A stretch of 64,000 nt of DNA from a virus. Its lineage: Duplodnaviria; Caudoviricetes. Position 1 is the first letter of the stretch. Each line of letters starts with the position of its first letter. Both the position numbers and the translations under genes were made by a program. This document shows, piece by piece, positions 2,872 through 39,637 of the stretch. The notes under the pieces are model-generated. The model did no database searches. It had not been told where the DNA came from and saw only the letters and a program-made list of their open reading frames with translations. The stretch covers positions 1-64,000 of IMG/VR virus record IMGVR_UViG_3300032007_000052. One strand, written 5' to 3'.

Positions 2872-3063
2872 ATGGCTATAAATAGCATTAATAGTACGAC
2901 GCAGAACGGTGTTGGCCACTTATGCGTTGATTTTGCAACTGATATGGCTGATTTACCGGAGTATGCAAGAAGTAACAATCTTAGAGAGGGTACAGACTGC
3001 ATATGCATTGAAGATGGCAGGGTTTATATGATGCAGTCAACTTTTGAATTTAAAGAAATCTGA
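2872..3063 (+). CDS. small hypothetical virion-module protein
   Basis: ORF with GAGGTG RBS inside the structural operon. Confidence 0.6.
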   Translation: MAINSINSTTQNGVGHLCVDFATDMADLPEYARSNNLREGTDCICIEDGRVYMMQSTFEFKEI

Positions 3064-3090
3064 TGAGGATGCGTTGGAAAGGAGGGCAAA

Positions 3091-3603
3091 ATGGATATAA
3101 TCGCATGGGCTAAAAGCAAAAGATATACAGATGAATCCATTTTAGGTATCACCGGTGTTCTTGCCGGAAAAAACTGCACAATTGCATCCGCTACTAAAGA
3201 AGATGGTTTGACCACAATTGTATTTAAATGGACTGCTGATACTGGTGAGGAGAGGACTACTTCTATTGAAGTCGAAGATGGTACTCCTATTTATGTTTGG
3301 GAAAGTGGTAATCATTACGAATATGGTGACTTGGCTATTTATGAGTCTTGTTTTTATCGTTGTATTACTGCTAACTCGGATGTGACTTTCGATGATACGA
3401 AATGGAATGAAATTGGTTCGCCGGATGGAAACTTTGATATTGTTGCTAATAGGACTTTGCTTCCGACTAGATATACGGCGGCTGATAGAAAGATGTATTA
3501 CTCAATTGCTGATGGTTATTTTTGGCTTTGGGATGGTACAGAATGGGTGATTCAACCACCTAAAAGCATAACAATAGAACAAATAGATGCATTGTTTGAT
3601 TAG
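3091..3603 (+). CDS. putative head fibre/decoration protein with CBM5/12-like segment
   Basis: WESGNHYEYGDLAIYESCFYRCITAN...W carbohydrate-binding-like motif; C-terminal ITIEQIDALFD. Confidence 0.55.
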   Translation: MDIIAWAKSKRYTDESILGITGVLAGKNCTIASATKEDGLTTIVFKWTADTGEERTTSIEVEDGTPIYVWESGNHYEYGDLAIYESCFYRCITANSDVTFDDTKWNEIGSPDGNFDIVANRTLLPTRYTAADRKMYYSIADGYFWLWDGTEWVIQPPKSITIEQIDALFD

Positions 3604-3621
3604 TTATAAGGAGAAAAAATC

Positions 3622-4518
3622 ATGGAAAAACAATTTCTTGATTACGAGGGTTTACAAGAATTAGTTGCAAAGATTAAAGAAAAATATGCAACAATTAAGG
3701 CTTTTATTTTCAAAGGAACTGTTGCTAATATTGCAGCTCTTCCGCCTATTGCTGACCAGAAGCCTGGTTATGTTTACAATGTGACTAAGGGTGGTACAAC
3801 AACAGCAGATTTCGATATTGGTGCTGGTCATCCTCTTCGTGATGGTGATAACGTTGTTGCTATCAATAATGGTACGGATGCTGTTCCTATTATGAAGTGG
3901 GATATTTTGGGTGCAACATTTGTTATTGAGGACAGATTGCAGTTTGGTGATACGTTCCCATCTGAGCCTGAAAATGATCAGACTTTCTTGTATATGGGTG
4001 ATACAACTTATACCTATACGAATGTAAGTGCTACACTTACTCCAAGTGATAATCCATCTACTGCTTCTTTTTTCGAGTATGATGAGGTTAATAACGAGTA
4101 CAACCCTAGTGCTGATTTATATGTAGATGAGTCTAAGACTTATTACACGATAGCTTCTGATACTCCAACATCAGATCCACAAGCTGAGGGCTTCTACGAA
4201 CTTGATGGAACTAAGTATGTTGCATCAACTGATACTACTGTTGATTCTGGAAAGACTTATTACAAGGCTTCGATTGCTACTGTTGTTCGTGGTGATAATC
4301 CTAAGACAATGGGTTTGTACGAGACAGATGGTACAGACTACTCTTTGACAAATGATGAGTATGTTGTTAGTGGAAAGAATTATTTTACTCGTGCTGAACA
4401 GTATGTAACTGGTGTTATTTATAAGTACAATACTGCTTCTACAAGTTGGGTTCCTCAGACTGCGGGAGATACTTATATTCCTATTACAAAGTCTCAGATC
4501 GACAGTTTGTTTGATTAA
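3622..4518 (+). CDS. putative fibre/decoration protein with internal repeats
   Basis: N-terminal FLDYEGL, three NP/DP..G.YE...Y..S.D..V...KTYY-like repeats, C-terminal ITKSQIDSLFD. Confidence 0.6.
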   Translation: MEKQFLDYEGLQELVAKIKEKYATIKAFIFKGTVANIAALPPIADQKPGYVYNVTKGGTTTADFDIGAGHPLRDGDNVVAINNGTDAVPIMKWDILGATFVIEDRLQFGDTFPSEPENDQTFLYMGDTTYTYTNVSATLTPSDNPSTASFFEYDEVNNEYNPSADLYVDESKTYYTIASDTPTSDPQAEGFYELDGTKYVASTDTTVDSGKTYYKASIATVVRGDNPKTMGLYETDGTDYSLTNDEYVVSGKNYFTRAEQYVTGVIYKYNTASTSWVPQTAGDTYIPITKSQIDSLFD

Positions 4519-4575
4519 ATTGTTGTGCGTACTCATGGGTACGCACTTTTTTGTATGATAATGAGGTGCGTACTT

Positions 4576-5715
4576 ATGAGTAATAAAGAATTTTTAGATT
4601 ACGAGGGTTTGGGTTATTTAGCTGAACATGTTAATTTACAAGATGGCAAAAAGATTGTAAAGAAGTTACGAACTGGCGAAACTACATTAACGATTACGGA
4701 TTCAGTGATTACAACTGATTCTATTATTGACATTTATTCTGATTTATATGGTGCTTATGCTACTTCGGTAACACAGAGCAATGGTTCACTTAGTATTACT
4801 TTTCCAGCTCAAGATAGGGATTTAAATATAATTGTAATTGTAAGAGATGGTAGGGGAGGTGGCATTAACCCTACCGGAAATGCTGTTGAGGGTGATGTTT
4901 TACTTAACAAGACTTTCTCAAATGATGATGGTGTTGATAAGGTTGGAACAATGCCTAACAATGGTGCGGTATCTCCATCTGCATTATCTCCAAATGGTAG
5001 TTATACAATACCTGAAGGATATCACAATGGAAATGGAGTTGTGACTGCAAGTCCGAATACGGGTACATATTCTCCAACGACACGCAATGCGGCTCTTGAC
5101 ATGGGTATTGATAATCTTAACAGATATGTTGATACAACGGGAGTTCCTAATTCAAATACAGAAACTTACATTGCTTCGTCTCGTGGTGCGTCACTTGATA
5201 TGGGTGCAACAAATTCGTATAGATATGTAAATACAAATGGAGTACCCAATAGTAACAGTAGTACATACACTTACCCAGCAAATGATACGGGCGGAACAAA
5301 AGACCTCGGTGAGACTAACACCTACCGCTATGTAAACGCTTCTAACGTTTATAATAAAGGGATTACAGATAGTGGCGTTTTGTACGAATTAAAGATAACA
5401 CACGCAGTAAATAGTAACAAGATATATTTAACAATCATAGAACTTGTTAGTAATACAACTAAAGTAAATAATAAAGAATTTACTACCGGAACGGTAGGTG
5501 GAAATCCTTTATTTACACAATCGGTAGATGGAATTACTTTTAACGCAAAGATTGGGGATGGAACAAGTAATGTTTATGCTGGAACATATAATGTAACAGC
5601 TTCAAAAGGAACTTCAACTAAAACGAAAAGCATACCACAACACGGAGCTGGAAACTGGTCAAATAGTTATACGTTGATATTTGATTTTATGTTAAAAGGC
5701 TCAACGATTTATTAA
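4576..5715 (+). CDS. fibre-like protein A (paralog of 8454-9374)
   Basis: GAGGTG RBS, FLDYEGL N-terminus, repeated LDMG..N.YRYVNTNGVPNSN units, unique C-terminal domain after NVYNKG. Confidence 0.7.
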   Translation: MSNKEFLDYEGLGYLAEHVNLQDGKKIVKKLRTGETTLTITDSVITTDSIIDIYSDLYGAYATSVTQSNGSLSITFPAQDRDLNIIVIVRDGRGGGINPTGNAVEGDVLLNKTFSNDDGVDKVGTMPNNGAVSPSALSPNGSYTIPEGYHNGNGVVTASPNTGTYSPTTRNAALDMGIDNLNRYVDTTGVPNSNTETYIASSRGASLDMGATNSYRYVNTNGVPNSNSSTYTYPANDTGGTKDLGETNTYRYVNASNVYNKGITDSGVLYELKITHAVNSNKIYLTIIELVSNTTKVNNKEFTTGTVGGNPLFTQSVDGITFNAKIGDGTSNVYAGTYNVTASKGTSTKTKSIPQHGAGNWSNSYTLIFDFMLKGSTIY

Positions 5716-5760
5716 ATAAAATGATTTTTATAATGCCGACAATGTTGTAGGGAGGGAGCC

Positions 5761-6267
5761 ATGTCAATAATTAATTATTTAGATTATGACGGTATTGAAG
5801 AGGTCGCTGATATTATAAATAGGCGAGATGGGAAAAGAATAAAACGAACATTACTAGCAGGACAAACTGAATTGGTGATTACTGATCCATGGATAGATGA
5901 TTCTGCTGTTATTGATATATATCCGGAATTTTACGGAATTGATCCAATTAGTGTTATCCAAAATGGGTCAACACTGACGTTAACTTTTATGCAACAATTA
6001 TTTGATTTAGATGTTACTGTCGTTATTCGTGATTTAACCCGTCGTGAGGGGGGTGAGGGTGATATGTATAAGGCTGATTATGATCCAAATGAGGATGTTT
6101 TAGATGCTGGCGGTATTCCAGAATATGTACAAGATGTGATGGACACACACGAGGCTTCTTATGATTCGGATTCTGCTGTTAAAAACGCTGGCGGTATAGC
6201 TGACTATGTGCATGATTATTTAATTACAGAGGAGCAGTGGACGCAGATTAATTCGATTCTAAGTTGA
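5761..6267 (+). CDS. fibre-associated adaptor-like protein
   Basis: YLDYDGI N-terminus; shares a ~65-aa beta domain with 4576 and 9906; two repeats of YD....V..AGGI..YV. Confidence 0.6.
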   Translation: MSIINYLDYDGIEEVADIINRRDGKRIKRTLLAGQTELVITDPWIDDSAVIDIYPEFYGIDPISVIQNGSTLTLTFMQQLFDLDVTVVIRDLTRREGGEGDMYKADYDPNEDVLDAGGIPEYVQDVMDTHEASYDSDSAVKNAGGIADYVHDYLITEEQWTQINSILS

Positions 6268-6277
6268 GGTACAATCA

Positions 6278-6946
6278 ATGAAAACGATAATAAATTTTGC
6301 GAACAAAGTAAGAAGCTTGGTGGATGGCAGAATGTCGAATATCGCTAATGTCGAAGAGAGTCCGTCTACTCATGCTTATACAGTAGGTAAGCAGCTTATT
6401 TTCAATGGGTTACTTTGCAAGGCTACAAGTGCGATTGCGGTAGGTGATACTTTGGCAGTTGGCACTAATATAGCACTGTCTGACAATGTTGTAGAACAAA
6501 TCTATTCGCTAAATCAAGGTTTGACGAATAGTATAAAGATTTCCGATGTTGCGAATGATTTAACAGTTACTACCGCTGGAAAAGTACTTGATGCAAGACA
6601 AGGGAAGATTTTAAACGAAAAAATTCAACATGTTAGAATTGATTTTAAGCAGAATATAATCGACCAATTAGGCAACACAACATATTACGAAAGTGCTGAC
6701 GGACTTATTAAAAAATCTGTATATATTTTTTTACCAACAGAATATACACCTTCAAATGTTGAATGTATATGTACTCTAGCACAAACATCATCATGTTTCG
6801 GAATAACAACAGCGGCTATTTCTAGTGCAACAAGAATATATGTATATTATAACGCACTAATTCAAAACATCACTGCAAAAGCTTTAGCTACAAGCACAAA
6901 CCCAGTGTATGAGTGTTACGTTGACTTCTTTATATTGATGAAATAA
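6278..6946 (+). CDS. fibre-like protein B, expressed orientation of invertible cassette 1
   Basis: Constant N-terminus up to NQGLTNS, which is encoded by the 22-bp inversion site; variable C-terminus follows. Confidence 0.75.
   Translation: MKTIINFANKVRSLVDGRMSNIANVEESPSTHAYTVGKQLIFNGLLCKATSAIAVGDTLAVGTNIALSDNVVEQIYSLNQGLTNSIKISDVANDLTVTTAGKVLDARQGKILNEKIQHVRIDFKQNIIDQLGNTTYYESADGLIKKSVYIFLPTEYTPSNVECICTLAQTSSCFGITTAAISSATRIYVYYNALIQNITAKALATSTNPVYECYVDFFILMK
6511..6532 (+). repeat. inversion site IR1-left AAATCAAGGTTTGACGAATAGT
   Basis: Perfect inverted copy at 8306-8327. Confidence 0.9.
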
Positions 6947-8327
6947 TCATAAATTAGCTGATAGAAAAATTCGTGAATCATTAGTTCCAGCTTTTGTAGC
7001 AAGCTTATACGATGAGTTAAGTGTAAATGCATTGGTTGAATTTATACCTAAATTTATATTAGATACATCTACAATATCACCAAAGCCCACTATACCTATA
7101 TCAGGATTTAAAAGTGTTGGTGAACCCGAACCAACTTGAGTCACAATCCAATCACCGGTTATTTGTTCAATTGTTGGGGTTTTTATCATAGGAACTGGCA
7201 AATACATAGGAAACCAAATATCTGAAGTACTATATGGCATACCTATAGTCACTTGTAGTCCGTTTCCGTTCGTTCCCTTTTTTCCAATAATTTGAAAATA
7301 CCTCTGACACTTAGCTAACTCTTGTTGGTAATTCGGCGCACTATCCATAGAAAGCGTGGATATTGTACCGAGTTCGAGTTTGACAGAATGAATTGTAAGT
7401 GATTTGTTTGCTTTTATGTCAAAACAAGCTGCTTCATACCATCCAACGGTACCAGAAAAACTTGTTGGCATTGTAAATGTTACAGATGTAATATTCCTAC
7501 CACTTGGAATATCTATACCACATAAACTTTCCCAGTCTCCGACTTTTTTAGAAACTCCAGCATATAAACGTCCACAATTACTTGCTGGCGCAGTTACATC
7601 TGCGCTCAAAGTTAATGTTTTTCCTTTTAATCTATCTAAGTCCTCTAAAGGAAGGTTTTCAATAAAATAAATAGAACGAGATTGAGGGTTTGTAATTGTA
7701 ACACTCTTATCACTATTGCTTACAACTGTACAACTTTCTAGGCTTGAAAGCATATTCCATCTATCTAAAGAGTAACCACCGTTAAATGAATATGTTGACT
7801 GTCCTCTTTGATTAACAGTAAACCAAGGGTTATCCAAAAGATTAGGATTGCTAATAGCCTGAACATAAGGTGTCATTTCTCTATTTGTCATAGAGTATGG
7901 TACATATGTATCATCTTGGATAGAGGCTGGGCGGAGCATAGGCTTAAATACAAGATTATTCACAACACTTTGTGCTGTTATCCAAATTGCAACGCGCCAA
8001 AGCCCAGTATTTGTACTTAAAGGTATTGTTATTCCATTTCCTTCATCAGCAAATGACTCGTCTACATAATTTGTATATTGTAGTGAATACGTACTTCTTG
8101 AACCACCATCAGGACATCCGGACAAAATCATTCCCCTTGCGTCAATATCTAATGCAATTGTAAAGCCAGTATTAGCTGATGCGGTTCCATTTGCCGTGAT
8201 ACTACCATCATCATTTACAGTAAACGTCACACCATTCACCGTCTGATTTGTGGCATTATTTGGAAGTAGATTCTTCGCACCAAGCACATTATTCATATCA
8301 GCTAAACTATTCGTCAAACCTTGATTT
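6947..8327 (-). CDS. silent alternative C-terminal cassette for protein B (receptor/carbohydrate-binding-like)
   Basis: In-frame with the IR (NQGLTNS-LADMNN...). Its stop abuts the stop of 6278-6946. Contains NLLDNPWFTVNQRGQ and ELAKCQRYF tail-fibre-type motifs. Confidence 0.8.
8306..8327 (-). repeat. inversion site IR1-right
   Basis: ACTATTCGTCAAACCTTGATTT is the reverse complement of 6511-6532. Confidence 0.9.
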
Positions 8328-8453
8328 TTAGCATAATTGCAAACAAACGTAAATAAAATGATAAAGTAAACTATTCGCATAACTTACATTTTGCGAAGAG
8401 TTTTATTTGTAACTATATTAAATACCGAACACTATTTTAGTGAGGTGATTTTT

Positions 8454-9374
8454 ATGGCTTTTTACAAACTTGGCACTAGAGAAGGTGGTGTTAATCCTAC
8501 TGGTAATGCAGTAGAAGCTAACGTCTTAAAAGATAAAACATTCTCCAATGCTAGTGGTATAAATAAAATAGGCACTATGCCAGACAATTCTACAACTACG
8601 TCTAATGGTACTGTTCCTGGCATAAATTCATCATATCCTAATATTCCTATTCGCCCTGGCTCTAATTTGCAAATGGGTGTCAATACTGATGGTGTTAAGC
8701 AACTTGCTATAGAACCACCACAAGGTTATTATCCCGGAGGTGGATCAAGTTACATTGGTGTTGATGCAGATGATTTAGGTGATGCTGTTGCAAGTGATGT
8801 TGCTTCCGGAAAAACGTTCACATCTGAAAATGGTATTGCAGTAGTTGGTACAAGGGAAAATTCTGGAACTTACACTGCAACGTCCCGCAATGCTGCGCTC
8901 GACATGGGTAATCCTAACACATACAGATATGTCAATACAAATGGAGTGCCCAATAGTAATAGTGGAACATATACTTTTGCATCAGGTGATACCGGCGGCA
9001 CGAAAGATTTGGGTGAAACCAACACATACCGCTACGTAAACGCTACTAACGTCTACAATAAGGGTAAAAGTGACGGGGTTTTAAGTTCAAACTTTAAGTA
9101 TGCATTGCTAACGCAAAATAATTCCGGAATTGTCAGTTATATAAATTTAGAAACCGGAGCTTACATCAAACAAAGTATTGCATATACTACTTCTGTTACA
9201 ATAGATGGGCATGTATTATCACTTTCATATAGTAATGGTTACAATTTAAGTATTTCATCTGGAAGTATTTCAGGATATAGATTTACAGGACCAAACATAA
9301 GTTTTGCAGTTTTAAATAACTTTAAAAGTGGAAATATAGGGGCTGTAGCACAAGTTATTTTTAATTTTGACTAA
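8454..9374 (+). CDS. fibre-like protein C, expressed orientation of invertible cassette 2
   Basis: GAGGTG RBS and ATG 8454; paralog of 4576; variable C-terminus after NVYNKGKSDGVL. Confidence 0.75.
   Translation: MAFYKLGTREGGVNPTGNAVEANVLKDKTFSNASGINKIGTMPDNSTTTSNGTVPGINSSYPNIPIRPGSNLQMGVNTDGVKQLAIEPPQGYYPGGGSSYIGVDADDLGDAVASDVASGKTFTSENGIAVVGTRENSGTYTATSRNAALDMGNPNTYRYVNTNGVPNSNSGTYTFASGDTGGTKDLGETNTYRYVNATNVYNKGKSDGVLSSNFKYALLTQNNSGIVSYINLETGAYIKQSIAYTTSVTIDGHVLSLSYSNGYNLSISSGSISGYRFTGPNISFAVLNNFKSGNIGAVAQVIFNFD
9021..9084 (+). repeat. inverted repeat IR2-left (64 bp)
   Basis: 63/64 identical to the reverse complement of 9820-9883. Confidence 0.92.
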
Positions 9375-9463
9375 TAAAAAACAAGTATTAATTAATTATG
9401 ATATACGAATATCTTTTATTTGTGTTCATTCCACAACGAAATAAAGCCATATCTTTCACCTCA

Positions 9464-9883
9464 TCATTTTTCTATGAATAAGTTATACCCAGAAGTTGTA
9501 TAGGCAGTGTTAGCAGACAAATCGGTTATATAACCACCACCACTTACAGTACTAGTTGGGTTGCTTGAACTTTGTTGATTATATGTTTGTTTATTAGATT
9601 TATATACTTTACATGCAAATGGCAATGTAACAGTGATAGTATTCGTACTAACAATTCGTGATACTACGATATTATCGTAAAGTGTAACAGAATACCCATA
9701 ATGAGCATTAGGAGAAATACTGTTTATCATTACATAATTTCCAGAATGATATATTGCTTCGAAATTAATCCAACCACCACTAGCTGTTGAAATAATATTA
9801 ATTAAAAGCCATCTTCCATTTAAAACCCCGTCACTTTTACCCTTATTGTAGACGTTAGTAGCGTTTACATAGCGGTATGTGTT
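9464..9883 (-). CDS. silent alternative C-terminal cassette for protein C
   Basis: Begins NTYRYVNATNVYNKGKSDGVL then diverges (NGRWLLIN...). The upstream in-frame part only overlaps the + strand gene 9906, so it lacks a credible start. Confidence 0.8.
   Translation of the reverse strand, partial: NTYRYVNATNVYNKGKSDGVLNGRWLLINIISTASGGWINFEAIYHSGNYVMINSISPNAHYGYSVTLYDNIVVSRIVSTNTITVTLPFACKVYKSNKQTYNQQSSSNPTSTVSGGGYITDLSANTAYTTSGYNLFIEK
9820..9883 (-). repeat. inverted repeat IR2-right (64 bp)
   Basis: Reverse complement of 9021-9084 with one mismatch. Confidence 0.92.
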
Positions 9884-9905
9884 CGGGAAACGAAAGGAGT
9901 AAAAG

Positions 9906-10454
9906 TTGAGAAAAGTTAAGTTAAATAATAAATTATATGAATTAGTAAACGAGCCTAACCGAAGTACATCTAATTTGCAATTTAATGTTGTCAAAGGTGA
10001 AAACACTTTTGAATCGATTATTGATAATGCTGATGGTAATGACATTATTGATGTATATGAGGATGATGAGAAGGTTGGAACTTATAAAGGATATTCCGAA
10101 CTCTTTGTAGCAAGTTATGTCAAGGGGAATGATTCAATTTCGATTGAACTAATCAATAATGACATTATTCAACAGATTGAAGATATCAATACAAGCATTG
10201 ATGAATTGGATGAAGATATTGAAGGAGTTAAGCAAGATGTTTCTAATATCACTCCAATAACATTAACTAAGACTGCTTACATTGATGATACAGAGATTGT
10301 ATTTGAAGATGTGCCAGAGGGAACACTTTCTGTTTACACAATTGATTCTGAAGGAAAACCAATTGATTTTGAGATGAATCGTGAGAATAATGTGGTTACA
10401 CTTTCATTTGAACCACTTGAACATGTAACAAATATTACATTGACTATTAGATGA
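9906..10454 (+). CDS. hypothetical virion protein (coiled coil plus C-terminal beta domain)
   Basis: AAGGAG RBS, TTG start; C-terminus resembles the shared domain of 4576 and 5761. Confidence 0.65.
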   Translation: MRKVKLNNKLYELVNEPNRSTSNLQFNVVKGENTFESIIDNADGNDIIDVYEDDEKVGTYKGYSELFVASYVKGNDSISIELINNDIIQQIEDINTSIDELDEDIEGVKQDVSNITPITLTKTAYIDDTEIVFEDVPEGTLSVYTIDSEGKPIDFEMNRENNVVTLSFEPLEHVTNITLTIR

Positions 10455-10464
10455 GGAGGTTGCT

Positions 10465-10701
10465 ATGAGTTTCTATATTGATACTATTGAGCAGATTGTT
10501 GGTACTGAGGGTGGATATTCCGAGTATGGTGGAAGAGAAAAAGTGGGCGATGAGCAGCTTGCGTATTCTAAATTCTATAAGAAGCTATCTGATGTAGCTG
10601 CTGATATTGGAAAGAATCATACTTATATGGATATTAAAATTACTAATTCTCTTGGTGGAATTATAAAGAAAGATTCTATTGGTGAGTATATTCATGAATG
10701 A
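10465..10701 (+). CDS. hypothetical protein
   Basis: GGAGG RBS, 78 aa. Confidence 0.65.
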   Translation: MSFYIDTIEQIVGTEGGYSEYGGREKVGDEQLAYSKFYKKLSDVAADIGKNHTYMDIKITNSLGGIIKKDSIGEYIHE

Positions 10702-10829
10702 AAAAAACGATTGAAAGTGTTTTGTATTTAGTGTATACTAATAGTTAGTTCCAACAAAATCTCACAAATTTTGTTTTAGACATTAAAGCTTCGAACGAAT
10801 GTTCGGGGCTTTTTTGCATGGAGAAAATT

Positions 10830-10955
10830 ATGCCAGTAAGAAAAGTAAAAGGTGGGTATAAATGGGGCAAAAGTGGCAAAGTGTATAAAACCAAGAAAGA
10901 GGCACTTACACAAGGAAGAGCAATAGAAATTAGTAAGAAGAAAAAGAAAAAATGA
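10830..10955 (+). CDS. small basic protein (41 aa, MPVRKVKGGYKWGKSGKVY...)
   Basis: GGAG RBS; flanked by terminator-like hairpins; absent from the ORF track because of size. Confidence 0.6.
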   Translation: MPVRKVKGGYKWGKSGKVYKTKKEALTQGRAIEISKKKKKK

Positions 10956-11083
10956 AGGCATCCCTTATGGGGTGTCTTTTTTAATTGTCATGGAAAAGAC
11001 GTTAAAACCCTGAGAGAACAGTAAACACGATACGAAGTCAGAGAAGACTTCACAAAAAACACGATTGAGAAAGGAAAAAGAAT

Positions 11084-11746
11084 ATGAAGAACAATGAAAT
11101 CCGATACTTGAAAACTATGTTACCTATGAATATTCAGTTTTTTGCAGAACCAGATGGAGGCGATACAGGAAATGGTGCTGAGGCATCACCTGATGGCGCA
11201 GAAGAGACTGTAATTGATGAGGGTGAACAAACTCCTACAAAAACTTATGAGGATGCTCTAGCGGAGATTGCGGCGGCTCAGGCAGAAGCTAAAAAGCTGA
11301 AAGCTGAAAGAGATGCGGCTCTTAAAAAGAGTGGTGACATTGCCAAACAGCTTAGAGCAAAGATGAGCGAGGCTGAATTACAGGCTGAGCAGAAAGCTCA
11401 AGAGGATGAGGAGAGACAAGCACACTTAAAGGAACTTGAAGCGTATAAAGCGGAGAATGAGGCTTTAAAGAGATACAGACTTCAAGGGATGGATGAGGAT
11501 CTTGCCGGAAAAGCTGCTAAAGCTGAAATTGAGGGTGATATGGATGCTCTTGCTGATGTTCAGAGACAGTATACCCAAGCTTTGCTGAAGGAAAAAGAGG
11601 CTGAGTGGAAGAAATCTCGTCCGAGGGTAAACATGGGTGATGGTGAGGATTCAACTTCTATGACTAAGGATGAGATTATGGCAATTAAAGATCCTAAAGA
11701 GAGACAGATTGCAATTGCTAAGAATCTCAAACAGTTTGGATATTAA
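11084..11746 (+). CDS. capsid scaffolding protein
   Basis: LPMNIQFFA N-terminal motif, acidic linker, coiled coil; directly upstream of the major capsid gene. Confidence 0.85.
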   Translation: MKNNEIRYLKTMLPMNIQFFAEPDGGDTGNGAEASPDGAEETVIDEGEQTPTKTYEDALAEIAAAQAEAKKLKAERDAALKKSGDIAKQLRAKMSEAELQAEQKAQEDEERQAHLKELEAYKAENEALKRYRLQGMDEDLAGKAAKAEIEGDMDALADVQRQYTQALLKEKEAEWKKSRPRVNMGDGEDSTSMTKDEIMAIKDPKERQIAIAKNLKQFGY

Positions 11747-11784: not shown

Positions 11785-12906
11785 ATGGCTGCTGAGAAAG
11801 GTTTAATTAAAAATGCCGATCTTGCGAAAGCGAGAGAGGTGGATTTCGTCTATCGTTTTCAGGATGGAATCAAAAAGCTTATTGAGGTTTTGGGAATTAC
11901 AAAGAAGATTCCAAAAGTTGCAGGTACTAATTTAAAGGCTTATAAGGCAACAGGTACTTTGTTAGACGGTATCGTTGCTGAAGGCGACATTATTCCACTT
12001 TCCCACTATAAGACAGTTCCAGTAACTTTTGCTGAGATTACTCTTAAAAAGTGGAGAAAAGCTACTTCTGCTGAGGCTATTGTTGAAAAGGGTTACGATC
12101 AGGCTGTTCAGATGACAACTGATGAGATGCTTAAGGATGTTCAGAAGGGTATTAAGAAGGATTTCTTCTCTTTCCTTGGGACAGGTACAGGTCTTGCAGC
12201 AGGTACTACTTTCCAGGACACAATCGCTCAGATTTGGGGACAGCTTCAGCTTTTGTATGAAGATACAGAGATGGAAGCTGTTTATTTTATGAATCAGCTT
12301 GATGCTGCTTCTTATCTTGGTAGTGCTCCTATCACAATGCAGACTGCATTTGGTATGACATATATCGAAGATTTCCTTGGACTTGGAACTGTTATCTTTA
12401 ATTCTTCTGTTCCAAAGGGTACTATTTACGGTACAGCTAAAGAGAACATTGTTCTTTACTATGTTCCTGTTAATGGTGCTGATCTTGACAATGCATTTGA
12501 ATTTGTTGCTGATCCTCTTGGATATATTGGTATTCACGAACAGCCTAATTATGACAATGTAACAGCTAGTGATACTGTTATGTGTGGTATGGTTCTGTTT
12601 GCTGAGAGAATTGATGGTATTGTAAAAGGCTCTATTGGTGGTACTGTTACTGCAACTGTTACAACTGATGTTGATGCTATTACAATTCCGGTTGATGGTG
12701 TTGATACTGTTCATGCTAAGATTAATCCTCGTGGCACAGCTTATACTTGGGCTTCTTCTGATGCATCTGTTGCTACTGTTAAGAATGGTCTTAGCGATTC
12801 TGATGTTGTCATTACAGGTGTTGCAGCTGGTACAGCTAATGTTACATGCACTATCAATGGTAGTGTTGTTAAGACTATTGCTGTTACAATTTCTGCCGGC
12901 GCATAA
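11785..12906 (+). CDS. major capsid protein with C-terminal Ig-like domain
   Basis: VAEGDIIPLS and KKWRKATSAEAI motifs; C-terminal YTWASSDASVATV..ITGVAAGTANVT Ig-like (Big_2) motif. Confidence 0.88.
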   Translation: MAAEKGLIKNADLAKAREVDFVYRFQDGIKKLIEVLGITKKIPKVAGTNLKAYKATGTLLDGIVAEGDIIPLSHYKTVPVTFAEITLKKWRKATSAEAIVEKGYDQAVQMTTDEMLKDVQKGIKKDFFSFLGTGTGLAAGTTFQDTIAQIWGQLQLLYEDTEMEAVYFMNQLDAASYLGSAPITMQTAFGMTYIEDFLGLGTVIFNSSVPKGTIYGTAKENIVLYYVPVNGADLDNAFEFVADPLGYIGIHEQPNYDNVTASDTVMCGMVLFAERIDGIVKGSIGGTVTATVTTDVDAITIPVDGVDTVHAKINPRGTAYTWASSDASVATVKNGLSDSDVVITGVAAGTANVTCTINGSVVKTIAVTISAGA

Positions 12907-16985: not shown

Positions 16986-17843
16986 ATGGCAAACGAGATT
17001 AAGGTTCAACAGAAACAGGGTATCAATACTTTTCTTCAATCGGATGCTGTTAAGCATAATATTATGTCTGTTGTTGGAGAGAAGGATAGTCAGAGGTTTA
17101 TTAGTTCGGTTGTGAGTGCTGTTCAGAGTAATCCACAACTTGCAGATTGTTCTAATTCTAGTATTTTATCTGCGGCTTTGCTTGGTCATAGTTTAAAATT
17201 GCCACAATCTCCACAACTTCAGATGTTTTATCTTGTTCCTTTTAATAATACTAAGAAGGTTAAGGATGAGAATGGCAGGGAGAAGGAAATCAAGGTTAAA
17301 GAGGCTGTTTTTCAGTTGTCTTACCGTGGATATTTGCAGCTTGCTATGAGGTCGGGTCAATACAGAAAGATTAATGCTTGTGATATTCGTGAGGGTGAGC
17401 TTAAGAGTTTCAATCCTATTACTGAGGAATATGTTTTTGAGGCTATTACTGACTATGAAAAGAGAAAGTTGCTTCCGGTTGTGGGTTATTATGCTTATTT
17501 TGAAATGAATAATGGATATCGCAAGGAGTTGTATTGGTCTAAAGAGCAGATGGATGCTCATGCTAAGCGGTATTCTATGGCCTATAGGAAGGGTTGGAGT
17601 AGTTCTTTCTGGGCTAGTGATTTTGATGCCATGGCTCTTAAGACTATGTTAAGACAGCTTATTTCCAAATGGGGCATGATGTCTGTTGACATGGAGACTG
17701 CTTACCAGAATGATATGGCTATTGAGGATGAAAATGGTAATCCTGTTTATGTAGACAATGTTTCAGATGGTCCTGAAAAGGCTGTTGATGTATATGCTGA
17801 TGTAGTTGCGGAGAGTGTTGCGGATGATAGTCACGAAGGATAA
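16986..17843 (+). CDS. recT: RecT-family single-strand annealing recombinase
   Basis: FYLVPF, AVFQLSYRGYLQLAMRSGQY and FDAMALKTMLRQL motifs. Confidence 0.9.
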   Translation: MANEIKVQQKQGINTFLQSDAVKHNIMSVVGEKDSQRFISSVVSAVQSNPQLADCSNSSILSAALLGHSLKLPQSPQLQMFYLVPFNNTKKVKDENGREKEIKVKEAVFQLSYRGYLQLAMRSGQYRKINACDIREGELKSFNPITEEYVFEAITDYEKRKLLPVVGYYAYFEMNNGYRKELYWSKEQMDAHAKRYSMAYRKGWSSSFWASDFDAMALKTMLRQLISKWGMMSVDMETAYQNDMAIEDENGNPVYVDNVSDGPEKAVDVYADVVAESVADDSHEG

Positions 17844-18636
17844 TTATTTTGATGTTGAAACTAATTTGAATTTTGTGGATTGTTCGACGTATAAGAATTT
17901 TGAGGGTACTCCTGGAATTAAAGCTTGTGAATGTAAGGCTTTAGCGATTGCTAAAGGGGAATACAAGCGTCCTATGACTGATGCTCTTATGGTGGGTAGT
18001 TATGTGGATGCGTTTTTTGATGGAGCTTTGGGTGAATTTAAGGAGAAAAATCCTCAAATTTTTACTGCTAAAGGTGAATTGAAGGCTCAATATAGGCAAG
18101 CTGAGGTTATGATTCAGCGTTGTCTTAAAGATGAGTTGTTTATGAAGTACATGCGTGGTGATACGCAACAGATTTTTACGTCAGAGATAAATGGTGTTCC
18201 TGTTAGGGTTAAGCTTGATAGTTTTGACGGCAGGAGAATTACTGACTTAAAAACTTGTAAGAGTATTTCTGAGACTTATTATGCTAAGGATTTGGGGGAG
18301 CGGTTAGACTTTATTACTTATTATGGGTACATTGAACAGGCTTATTTTTACAAGAAGGTTATGCTCAATGTTACTGGTAAGGATTATCCGTTCTACATTT
18401 GTGCTGTTACTAAGGAGAAAGAGGATGGTGTTCCTCATCCTAGAATTGCGGTTATAAACATCCCGGATAAGGTTATCTGGGAAAAGGGCAAGGAGATTGA
18501 GATGAAGCTTCCAAAAGTTTGGAAACTTTTGAGGGGTGAGATTAGTCCTATTCCTTGTGGTACATGTTCATGGTGTGCGGATAATTTGGCTTTAAACAAG
18601 GTTTTAAGCTTGGACGAGTTGTTATTGGAGATTTAA
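17824..18636 (+). CDS. PD-(D/E)XK exonuclease (RecE/DUF3799-like)
   Basis: ALMVGSYVDAFF, VKLDSF...ITDLKT and YGYIEQAYFY motifs; adjacent to recT. Confidence 0.8.
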   Translation: MIVTKDNYFDVETNLNFVDCSTYKNFEGTPGIKACECKALAIAKGEYKRPMTDALMVGSYVDAFFDGALGEFKEKNPQIFTAKGELKAQYRQAEVMIQRCLKDELFMKYMRGDTQQIFTSEINGVPVRVKLDSFDGRRITDLKTCKSISETYYAKDLGERLDFITYYGYIEQAYFYKKVMLNVTGKDYPFYICAVTKEKEDGVPHPRIAVINIPDKVIWEKGKEIEMKLPKVWKLLRGEISPIPCGTCSWCADNLALNKVLSLDELLLEI

Positions 18637-36724: not shown

Positions 36725-37291
36725 TTATACTATATCAGAATATCCTAGAAGCATCTGGTCTTCTTCATAGGAACTTACACCTAAATATCTTTGAGTAATA
36801 GCAGGACTGCTATGTTGATAAAAATTCATTACTTTAATAATGTTGTAGCCACTTGCTTCATAGAGATTCATTCCACAATATTTCCTAAATGAGTGAGTAG
36901 ATATGTTTTCATATTCCAAAAAATCACATACCTTTTTTAGATATTTTTGAACTGATCGTTCTGTCATAGGGAATATGAGATCATTTTTCTTTATTTCATT
37001 TTCCTTGATGTATAAGTTCAAATGCTTATAGAACTCGTGACTGATGCTCTTGTAGCGTTTCTTTTTTGTTTTCTGCTCAATTATACTAATCTTATAAATA
37101 CCACCCGCAAAAACGAAGCTAGAGGGTTTTAAAGCTAATACATCCTCAATACGGATTCCTAAATTTGCTTCGGCTATAAGAACTTCTGATATTCTGATGT
37201 TTGGTTTGAAATAGTATGAGCCTGTTCTCATTGCTTCGATAATTGTTTTATATTGGTGTCTGGTTAACGGTACTGTTGCGTATGCTCCCAT
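36725..37291 (-). CDS. small tyrosine recombinase (catalytic domain only)
   Basis: R (GIRIED), K (EQKT), HSFRK, H (QHSS) and Y (TQRYL) all present. Confidence 0.88.
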   Translation of the reverse strand: MGAYATVPLTRHQYKTIIEAMRTGSYYFKPNIRISEVLIAEANLGIRIEDVLALKPSSFVFAGGIYKISIIEQKTKKKRYKSISHEFYKHLNLYIKENEIKKNDLIFPMTERSVQKYLKKVCDFLEYENISTHSFRKYCGMNLYEASGYNIIKVMNFYQHSSPAITQRYLGVSSYEEDQMLLGYSDIV

Positions 37292-37301
37292 GTGAATCCT
37301 T

Positions 37302-37844
37302 TCAATGTAAATAATCCTTATATTTTTCTATGAATTTCTTTATAGAACTTATTGTTCCGTATCTGTATTCTATTAATTTCCTTTTTGGACTGTTTAAAAC
37401 ATCAATAGCAGAGAATTCTTTATTTGTCATTTCATTTATACAATTAATCATTCCTGAATATCTTATTTCCGAAGAATTGATAAAATGGTATTGCCTTTTT
37501 ATTTCCTTCAGATGATTAGTTATTCTGAATTCGTTATGCTGATTTACATCTATTTGACTAGCTAAAAGTGCTTTAACAATATGAGTATCATCAGGATGAT
37601 AACTTATATCATTTGATTTATGTGTATGATAAGTGTTAACTGATATGTTTGCCAGGTCTACTAGCTTAGGTGAAAACGAAAGTTTTCTTCCTGATGTCAA
37701 TCTTAACGAATCATTTAAGATGTCTTCTTTTGTTAAGGCTGCTATTTCTTTTACTTTTAAGCCTTCAAAAAGCGCTAATACTATAAAAGCATCAGCAGGT
37801 GTTAACTTTTCAATTGTGTTGCATAATTCTTTATATGTAATCAT
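37302..37844 (-). CDS. tyrosine-recombinase-fold regulator (MrpR/YopR-like)
   Basis: DAFIVLALFEGLKVKEIAALTKEDI and IRYSGMI; catalytic set degenerate. Confidence 0.55.
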   Translation of the reverse strand: MITYKELCNTIEKLTPADAFIVLALFEGLKVKEIAALTKEDILNDSLRLTSGRKLSFSPKLVDLANISVNTYHTHKSNDISYHPDDTHIVKALLASQIDVNQHNEFRITNHLKEIKRQYHFINSSEIRYSGMINCINEMTNKEFSAIDVLNSPKRKLIEYRYGTISSIKKFIEKYKDYLH

Positions 37845-37845
37845 A

Positions 37846-38307
37846 TTACTCCCTTATTTGTAGTTGTATATCACATTCGTTATCGACAATTTCGAGAATA
37901 TTTTTCCATTCTCCGGATGCAAGAAGCTCATTATGAAGATCATTTGCTTTTTCGAGTAATGATCCTATACGGCTATCGTTCCATTTGTATTTTCTTTTCA
38001 TTGTCAACGCAAAAAGAGACATCATTTTAAGCCAGTTGTCTTCAAGTCCTTCTTCAACTTGTGTTTGGCAATCGTCAATACGAGAGTCAAGTTGCTGCTG
38101 GTATTTAATTCTCATTTGTTCTGATTCTTCAGCTTGTCTTTTTTCGAAGGCTTGATTTCTGTTTTGAACTTTCCCAAGTGCCTTAATGATTCTTCGGCGG
38201 TCACTTCGATTTTTTCCATTTGCATTTACCTGGGCTGCAATGTAGTTTGATACATCATTTGATTCAGCTTCAAGTTTTGATAGGTCGATACTAAGATATT
38301 TATTCAC
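37846..38307 (-). CDS. hypothetical protein
   Basis: GGGAGG RBS; operon with the recombinase. Confidence 0.6.
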   Translation of the reverse strand: MNKYLSIDLSKLEAESNDVSNYIAAQVNANGKNRSDRRRIIKALGKVQNRNQAFEKRQAEESEQMRIKYQQQLDSRIDDCQTQVEEGLEDNWLKMMSLFALTMKRKYKWNDSRIGSLLEKANDLHNELLASGEWKNILEIVDNECDIQLQIRE

Positions 38308-38470
38308 GATAGCCCTCCCGTTTTTGCGTACAATGCGCTTTAATTAAAGTTATGTATAAATGTTAGCAGATGACTTTTTTGCTTGTTACGTGAGGAAATA
38401 GACAGGGTTTTGCCCCGCACTCAATACCTGAAGGGGCATTTCAGTTCATGAGTGCATAACCCTATATCCA

Positions 38471-39637
38471 TTATACGATAATCTTATTGAAAAACTCTTT
38501 TAAAATATCGAAGTAGCCTTTCTTTTTTGACATTTTATGAATCAATGGCACACCTGATTCATTGTTTGGCACTTGAGATTTTAGCGAAGGTTTGCATGAT
38601 TCCTTTGTTGGTACTTCAATGCGGAGTGCTTCAGCTAAAATTCTCTTTTCTGTTTCGTTCATATAGGCCGATTGAATTCTCAATGGTTCAAAGGATCCAT
38701 TTCCCAGGAATAGCATGTCACCTTTTCCATAAAGTTTTTCAGCTCCATTACGGTCCATTATGATTCTCGACTCTAGCGAAGTAGTGGTCTTCAATGCGAT
38801 TCGAGTCGGGATATTTGCTTTGATTAGTCCGGTTACGATGTCTTTACGTGGGGACTGGGTTCCGATTATGAGATGGATTCCACAAGCACGAGCCTTTTGA
38901 GCGATTCTCACTATAGGCTTCTCAATGTCTTTGAATTGAAGCATGAGATCTGCAAGCTCATCAATTATAACAACTATAGGATTCATTTCTCCTGGATATG
39001 AATAGATGTCTTTAGCTCCAGCACTTTGAAGTAATCTATATCTTTTTTGCATTTCTTCCACAAGATTATTCATTGTGATATACATTTTTGATACGGATGT
39101 AATTACTTCCGTATTGATGCAATTGTTATACATTGAAAACTCATTACCTTTTGGATCAAGTATAATAAGTTTAGCTCCAGTCTGAGGAAAACTATAGGCT
39201 ATACTTGCAGCGAAGCAGTGCAGCAACTCAGATTTTCCGCTTCCGGTAGTACCACCTATAAGAATGTGCGGTGCTTTTGATAAATTTGTATAGACTTTTT
39301 TTCCGTTTTCATCAACTCCTAAAACGAGTCTTAATTGTTTTCCTCCCAGAACATCATAGAATTTTGAGAATGCAACGGGTGTAAATTTATCTAACTTTTT
39401 ATCAATGTATATACATCCACCAGTACGTGTGTAGGTGAAGTCTATAGTATTTAGTGCGGAAGACAATGCTTCCTTCAGTATTCTTTCTGCACTCAAGACT
39501 TTCTTATAAGTCATGAGATCATTAGGAAGTTTAATCTCAAATTTTACTGTTCTAGGGCAAAGTATAACATTAGTTACGACAAGGCCCAGGAAAGCTATCA
39601 ATTCATTTAATGCTTCAACATCTCTTGTAAAATCCAT
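38471..39637 (-). CDS. FtsK/SpoIIIE-family ATPase
   Basis: PHILIGGTTGSGKS Walker A, VIIDELADLM Walker B, ARACGIHLIIGTQ and GAEKLYGKGDML. Confidence 0.9.
   Translation of the reverse strand: MDFTRDVEALNELIAFLGLVVTNVILCPRTVKFEIKLPNDLMTYKKVLSAERILKEALSSALNTIDFTYTRTGGCIYIDKKLDKFTPVAFSKFYDVLGGKQLRLVLGVDENGKKVYTNLSKAPHILIGGTTGSGKSELLHCFAASIAYSFPQTGAKLIILDPKGNEFSMYNNCINTEVITSVSKMYITMNNLVEEMQKRYRLLQSAGAKDIYSYPGEMNPIVVIIDELADLMLQFKDIEKPIVRIAQKARACGIHLIIGTQSPRKDIVTGLIKANIPTRIALKTTTSLESRIIMDRNGAEKLYGKGDMLFLGNGSFEPLRIQSAYMNETEKRILAEALRIEVPTKESCKPSLKSQVPNNESGVPLIHKMSKKKGYFDILKEFFNKIIV

Follow-up and report, generated by a model that had tools for sequence, protein, structure and literature searches.

A probable DNA-inversion switch for the C-terminal domain of a tail-fibre-like phage protein, with no invertase next to it

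We analyzed a stretch of 64,000 nucleotides (hereafter the window) from a virus of the Caudoviricetes (Duplodnaviria; IMG/VR record IMGVR_UViG_3300032007_000052). The window makes up the first 64 kb of a 94,032-bp record that has direct terminal repeats and is rated complete. At positions 8454-9883 it holds a fibre-like gene followed, on the other strand, by a cassette that encodes an alternative C-terminal part, and the two are joined by a 64-bp inverted repeat. Judging from the sequence, this locus is probably a switch in which DNA inversion replaces the C-terminal domain of a tail-fibre-like protein, the distal part that probably recognises the host. A single crossover between the 64-bp arms would flip 9021-9883, a segment of ~860 bp. 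This would join the silent tail, C2, in frame to the constant part of the protein (328 aa) and park the current tail, C1, as the new silent cassette, while the sequence outside the arms would stay unchanged. We infer that such flipping would recur within a population and that adsorption specificity would be altered. The elements of the locus are the following:

8454..9374 (+): fibre-like gene in its expressed form, 306 aa (protein P0003), from its open reading frame (ORF) and translation; constant N-terminus, junction and tail C1
8454..9020 (+): constant part, 189 aa; N-terminal module with ~35-aa repeats ending in N-x-Y-R-Y-V-N, conserved in the alignments up to the junction
9021..9084 (+): left repeat arm, which is the junction motif of the expressed gene
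9084..9377 (+): tail C1, 96 aa plus stops, currently expressed
9464..9819 (-): silent tail C2, 118 aa plus stop, with no start of its own
9820..9883 (-): right repeat arm, bordered on its outer side by the ribosome-binding site (RBS) of the next plus-strand gene
5317..5360 (+): diverged third junction copy, within the paralogue 4576-5715; inverted relative to 9840-9883, which it matches at 39/44

The two arms are almost perfect mirror images. The repeat search placed 64 nt in each of them, 735 nt apart and 98% complementary (63/64), and their sole mismatch, a C at 9035 against a T in the mirror arm, falls in a tyrosine codon where it is synonymous. Both arms translate in frame as NTYRYVNATNVYNKGKSDGVL. 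An earlier note on this DNA had reported the same inverted identity and the shared peptide, which repeat search and translation thus confirm, and it had described the C-termini past the repeat as unrelated. They are: the tails of 96 aa and 118 aa give a BLASTP E of 2.8. Read together with its arm, C2 forms 139 open codons at a GC content of 32%, whereas none of 20,000 shuffled sequences stayed open. The inverted repeat with its open C2 frame is real and lies far beyond chance. Elsewhere in the 94-kb genome the repeat sequence has solely one diverged direct copy, the one at 5317-5360.

Flipping 9021-9883 in silico turns the native protein of 306 aa into one of 328 aa, and both are in frame. A nested flip of 4.5 kb through the copy at 5317-5360 would also be in frame and would give 386 aa. 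As the locus has one block of homology and two tails that face each other, inversion by one reciprocal crossover in the arms would be the simple way to express C2; gene conversion would need homology on both sides. Directly past the C2 stop, at 9443..9463 (-), we found TGAGGTGA, 5 nt and ATGGCTTT, which match the RBS and start of the fibre gene itself (8441-8461) at 17/21. This relic suggests that C2 was captured as a block composed of the junction, the tail and the following fibre-gene start, and was then inverted. The promoter and terminator scan around the switch gave matches at chance level. A second switch of another repeat type, cassette 1 (6278-8380), lies 1 kb away in the same fibre block and has a perfect 22-bp repeat present in exactly two copies in the genome. 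If cassette 1 also flips, at least four combinations follow arithmetically.

To describe the family of the protein we used a large protein collection, in which 277 homologues share the N-terminal module and the junction. Their alignment is conserved through N-T-Y-R-Y-V-N-A-[TS]-N-V-Y-N-K-G, with N190, Y192, R193, Y194, V195, N196 and A197 invariant, and has no similarity beyond. Proteins near-identical to that of the window over the first ~130 residues carry at least nine unrelated tails, all of which diverge right after NVYNKG, and seven tails compared pairwise are all unrelated. C1-type tails that are 92-93% identical are found on three N-terminal architectures (P0003, P0016 and P0018). The 21-aa junction is also the seam along which tails are swapped between the genomes of relatives. 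Curated families (Pfam, NCBIfam) gave neither name nor function for the protein, the ESM Atlas returned unnamed viral clusters only, and the AlphaFold models of the whole protein and of C2 are poor (mean confidence, pLDDT, of 43 and 52). In the related metagenome locus L005, the homologous gene comes after those for the C-terminus of a tape measure, for a DUF6711 protein, for a 635-aa protein and for two proteins that match tail-fibre PHROGs. It is on such context and on its variability, not on fold, that we call the 8454-9374 product a tail-fibre-like protein with a putative exchangeable distal domain. Some members of the family (P0020 and L008:6-737) have tandem repeat units in direct orientation within one protein, and P0020 has four that include the complete N-V-Y-N-K-G junction; these direct repeats could expand or contract by recombination.

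The C2 tail is also found outside the window. Its 90% cluster comprises P0138 (the window's own 88-aa ORF, which starts at an internal Met), P0137, P0123 and P0139. The last of these, a protein of 329 aa from a related phage, matches the window protein at 81% identity over residues 1-215 and C2 with its arm at 86% over all 139 aa, the two parts being joined at the same motif. Its composition matches that of the predicted 328-aa flip product. Other expressed homologues of C2 joined at the junction are P0051 (50% over 128 aa) and P0124/P0142 (46%). P0137 and P0123 are silent-form copies on other contigs, called from an internal Met like the window's own P0138; P0137 has 3 differences in 88 aa (read from the alignment) and P0123 is 92% identical to C2. 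Neither has acquired stops, a sign of decay that the earlier note had asked about in relatives: both are open over the 88-97 aa called as ORF. Among close relatives, the C2-type tail occupies both silent and expressed positions, and we take it to be a real and usable module. The linker that follows the junction reads NKGKSDGVLNG in the C2 of the window and NIGLSTGGLVK in P0139, and the C2 linker differs from the latter exactly where it equals the C1 linker, which points to a conversion of the arms in this lineage.

Two further observations concern the close relatives. P0141 has an N-terminus ~97% identical to that of P0139 (alignment count) but a third tail type, and its contig record (three contigs, the longest of 8,757 nt) is the same as that of the silent P0137. 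P0017, of 201 aa and known from two contigs that do not exceed 976 nt, has an N-terminus near-identical to that of P0141 and its record ends at NASNV. If this end is that of a short contig, it would correspond to an assembly break at the junction, as in a graph that forks at a repeat with alternative continuations.

The same layout recurs in other genomes. Among 26 metagenome loci fetched by the junction motif, two further lineages (L005 and L013/L030) have a plus-strand gene followed by a tail-to-tail inverted, start-less cassette behind an inverted junction. The arms are of 70 nt, 93% identical and 546 nt apart in L005, and of 63 nt, 95% identical and 767 nt apart in L013 (L030 is this element from a second sample). 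Downstream of the switch, L005 and the window are syntenic, and L005 has homologues of 9906-10454 (59% amino acid identity) and 10465-10701 (67-68%) there. Expressed proteins distantly homologous to the silent cassettes of L013 and L005, again joined at the junction, are P0115/P0093 (44%) and P0080 (37%), respectively.

We compared the arms within and between genomes over the 64 junction nucleotides. Within a genome, they agree at 63, 59 and 57 positions in the three lineages, whereas junctions from unrelated genomes agree at 34-52 positions and the paralogue copy in the window reaches 45-46 with the arms, even though nearly the same peptide is encoded. Hence, the identity of arms within a genome is far above that between genomes, which indicates that the arms evolve in concert within each genome. 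Such a pattern is expected of arms that recombine with each other, but not of a scar in decay. The inner end of the repeat varies by lineage (~57, 64 and 70 nt), while L005, L013 and the window have its outer end at one common codon and share TACCGCTA there.

The surroundings of the switch differ between lineages. In L005 the switch block (L005:5267-8060) comes after the tape measure and baseplate-like genes, whereas the homologous block of the window (2872-10701) lies between the MuF and scaffold genes. The whole fibre block has thus moved between modules in related phages. In L013 the junction belongs to a 753-aa protein that has a long coiled coil and is anchored in the membrane by its N-terminus (L013:3227-5488; cassette at 5601-5996, minus strand), a methyl-accepting chemotaxis gene (L013:6251-8047) adjoins the switch, and L030 has an LPD1-domain protein nearby. 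From this context, such a switch may also exist outside the classical phage tail module.

The genome encodes the following candidate recombination enzymes:

36725..37291 (-): 188-aa tyrosine recombinase, catalytic domain only, the only site-specific recombinase of the genome (Pfam Phage_integrase, 3.3e-17; phrog_216, 4e-30)
16986-17843 (+): RecT (Pfam RecT, 2.3e-41)
17806-18636 (+): PDDEXK/DUF3799 exonuclease (Pfam DUF3799, 3.9e-59)

As the earlier note had stated, no invertase is adjacent to the switch. There is no match to the serine recombinase family PF00239 in the 94-kb genome at E<=1, at which control genomes do match, and the sole tyrosine recombinase is the one at 36725-37291. R, HxxR, H and Y can be read in its translation, and its PF00589 match (36776-37267) lies 27 kb from the switch. 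It is also two ORFs away from a 388-aa FtsK/SpoIIIE-like ATPase (both within 36725-39637, minus strand), and this pairing would fit dimer resolution of the Xer/FtsK type, perhaps with a plasmid-like lifestyle, as well as a role as invertase. The RecT/exonuclease pair is a candidate homology-dependent recombination machinery. Other systems were searched for and set aside: the large serine recombinase family PF07508 is absent from the genome, as is PF01548 for an invertase of the Piv/IS110 (DEDD) type. A diversity-generating retroelement was discarded as well, since the reverse transcriptase PF00078 is absent and the repeat here is inverted and near-identical.

Several observations weigh against a switch that flips by homology within a genome. 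We found no near-identical flipped isoform for the window or L005 in the protein database, nor the flipped junction pattern in IMG/VR, although both negatives are weak, as these collections seem to contain very few copies of this phage; scans of IMG/VR with the protein and the alignment yielded two distant loci only. No pair of sequences of one phage was found in both orientations. P0139, coming from a relative that is 81-86% identical, could also stem from an exchange between genomes at the junction, a defined recombinase site could also account for the fixed outer end of the repeat, and it is context only that points to the probable receptor-binding role of the tails. Part of this is what one would expect if exchange between phages at the junction had left the inverted cassette behind as a static scar or reservoir, with no useful rate of flipping, and if diversity arose only via co-infecting relatives. 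Tails have clearly been exchanged between genomes, as the C1 type on three architectures and the many tails on near-identical N-termini attest; the fibre-gene start relic indicates that C2 was imported as a block; and L014, which is 93% identical to L013 upstream of the junction, has no inverted cassette. Yet a scar is expected to decay, and instead three lineages keep open start-less cassettes between arms that are 93-98% identical, while the silent copies of relatives have stayed open over the length called. In addition, the single block of homology and the tail-to-tail geometry leave inversion as the only simple route by which the cassette could be used. Hence, we consider a static scar unlikely. 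Another account of C2 starts from the claim of the earlier note that the minus-strand cassette has no start. This stood for L005 and L013, whose homologous cassettes have no upstream start (in L013 a stop lies 4 codons ahead of the junction), but not in the same way for the window, where the frame is open up to an ATG at 10045. C2 might thus be made by itself, as a 193-aa product of the minus-strand ORF 10045-9464. However, this ATG lies inside the next plus-strand gene, the 54 extra codons run antisense across the RBS and start of 9906-10454, the ATG at 10045 has no visible RBS in front of it, promoter-like matches are at chance level, and gene callers took the internal Met instead (the 88-aa P0138). 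Together with the absence of an upstream start in the homologous cassettes, this makes a separate product very improbable.

A DNA-inversion switch of the fibre tip is the reading that we retain, and it may work in two ways. In one of them, a site-specific enzyme acting in trans, either the recombinase at 36725-37291 or an invertase of the host, would catalyze the flip at a core inside the 64-bp arms, and the remaining identity of the arms would be a by-product of protein conservation and conversion. The genome does have one site-specific recombinase with the catalytic residues, if reduced to its catalytic domain, and the constant outer end of the repeat with TACCGCTA argues for a defined site. 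Cassette 1, whose repeat of 22-25 bp is too short for efficient homologous recombination, probably needs a site-specific enzyme, and both trans-acting invertases and a phage inversion locus with no flanking recombinase have been described (PMC6109161). But the repeats of the two switches differ, as the earlier note had observed: the 22-bp repeat of cassette 1 (IR1) agrees with the 64-bp arms (IR2) at 11/22 positions, against a median of 12/22 for random genome segments. A core shared by IR1 and IR2 was accordingly rejected, the IR2 pair giving only 11/22 and the paralogue junction alone reaching 15/22 (~top 2% of random segments). Since IR1 matches IR2 no better than random segments do, one sequence-specific enzyme is unlikely to serve both switches. 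Further, no recombinase gene was found within the 10-13 kb examined around L005 or L013/L030, the recombinase of the window is 27 kb off and close to the FtsK/SpoIIIE-like gene, so that Xer-like dimer resolution fits it too, and the identity spans the full 64 bp, including the part that would never be expressed or exchanged under a fixed crossover. We rank catalysis in trans second, as a serious alternative. In the other way of working, the flip would depend on homology, with the RecT/exonuclease of the phage, or a replication-linked and RecA-independent pathway of the host, acting between the long near-identical arms. The mismatch of IR1 and IR2, the presence of RecT and the exonuclease, the varying inner end of the repeat, the linker that points to arm conversion and the precedent of spnIII (see below) lead us to favour homology-dependent flipping over a site-specific enzyme, if only slightly.

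The fibre switches of Mu (G/Gin), P1 (C/Cin), e14 (P/Pin) and p15B (Min) have an adjacent serine invertase and short crossover sites. In these systems, inversion joins a constant N-terminus to alternative, opposite-facing C-terminal parts, and host range changes (PMC6109161). The window resembles them in having a constant fibre N-terminus, alternative opposite-facing C-terminal parts and bounding inverted repeats. It differs from them in that it has neither a serine recombinase nor any adjacent recombinase, its repeat is a 64-bp coding junction motif, and its flipped segment carries no tail-fibre assembly gene. In Bifidobacterium prophages, the Rin shufflon comprises several cassettes flanked by a tyrosine invertase and uses an 11-bp rix site, TTCCCTAACCC (PMC6109161). 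Like the window, this system of Gram-positive phages puts variable C-terminal cassettes after the constant N-terminus of a receptor-binding protein, with a tyrosine recombinase implicated or an enzyme in trans. In contrast, the only tyrosine recombinase of the window is 27 kb away, there is one silent cassette, and the repeat is of 64 bp. The rix motif TTCCCTAACCC is not found at the switch, and its one match with 1 mismatch in the window, at 2693-2703, is at chance level. Mavrich et al. (2018) also described a second, simple inverted locus in a fibre region that has no flanking recombinase (PMC6109161). Hence, the lack of an adjacent enzyme is not unprecedented.

The closest resemblance for the pairing of a short with a long repeat is found in bacteria. 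In the pneumococcal spnIII/cod hsdS locus, a 15-bp repeat needs the tyrosine recombinase CreX/PsrA for its inversion, whereas an 85-bp repeat inverts without CreX and without RecA (PMC6620402). Both spnIII and the window have short and long coding inverted repeats together, of 22 bp (IR1) and 64 bp (IR2) in the window. The repeat of the window (64 bp at 63/64), like those of its relatives (63-70 nt at 93-95%), is within the range of the ~60-330 bp high-identity coding repeats of the spnIII type. Unlike the window, spnIII is a bacterial restriction-specificity gene with a recombinase in the locus and three repeats that have a common 10-bp core. The catalogue of gene-altering programmed inversions in bacteria of Milman et al. 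(2023) is enriched in tail-fibre genes, and longer repeats go with observed variation (PMC9881135). As in these inversions, that of the window would swap the 3' part of a coding sequence and keep the frame. The catalogue rests on within-species variation or long reads, whereas the window is known from one orientation plus relatives that are 81-92% identical.

While the inversion of fibre tips is textbook knowledge for Mu and P1, there is little documentation of it for the phages that infect strictly anaerobic Firmicutes. The locus described here is a clean and compact example, with one silent cassette and no neighbouring invertase. It provides two rules for the annotation of this family: all that lies past N-x-Y-R-Y-V-N-A-[ST]-N-V-Y-N-K-G should be treated as an exchangeable module, and start-less reverse-strand ORFs that open with the junction motif should be treated as spare tips, not as junk. 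If the flip needs no dedicated recombinase, homology alone could maintain programmed variation in phages. A broader and much more tentative proposal is that the junction is a portable recombination adapter in a large fibre family of anaerobe phages, in which the junction DNA would be maintained at a length and identity sufficient for late-expressed RecT/exonuclease or replication-linked annealing to flip the cassette with no invertase, and co-infecting relatives would trade receptor-binding tips at the same seam. If so, it would be a recombinase-free, homology-programmed switch of host range that acts both within and between genomes.

The following genes lie around the switch:

553-2151: portal gene
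2179-2850: MuF-like gene
~3.1 to 10.7 kb: fibre-like gene block
9906..10454 (+): next gene, beyond the switch; its L005 homologue (59% amino acid identity) likewise follows the L005 switch
11084-11746: scaffold gene
11785-12906: major head protein gene

We compared window positions 4000-11000 with GenBank phages by megablast and found no match, and a scan of species genomes gave no match either. The only named organism among the homologues of the 306-aa protein is a Butyrivibrio species. Within the fibre block, a 26-nt direct repeat (8303-8328 and 8367-8392, 77%) doubles the right arm of the cassette 1 repeat just upstream of that arm, and may be a decayed extra site of the cassette 1 switch.

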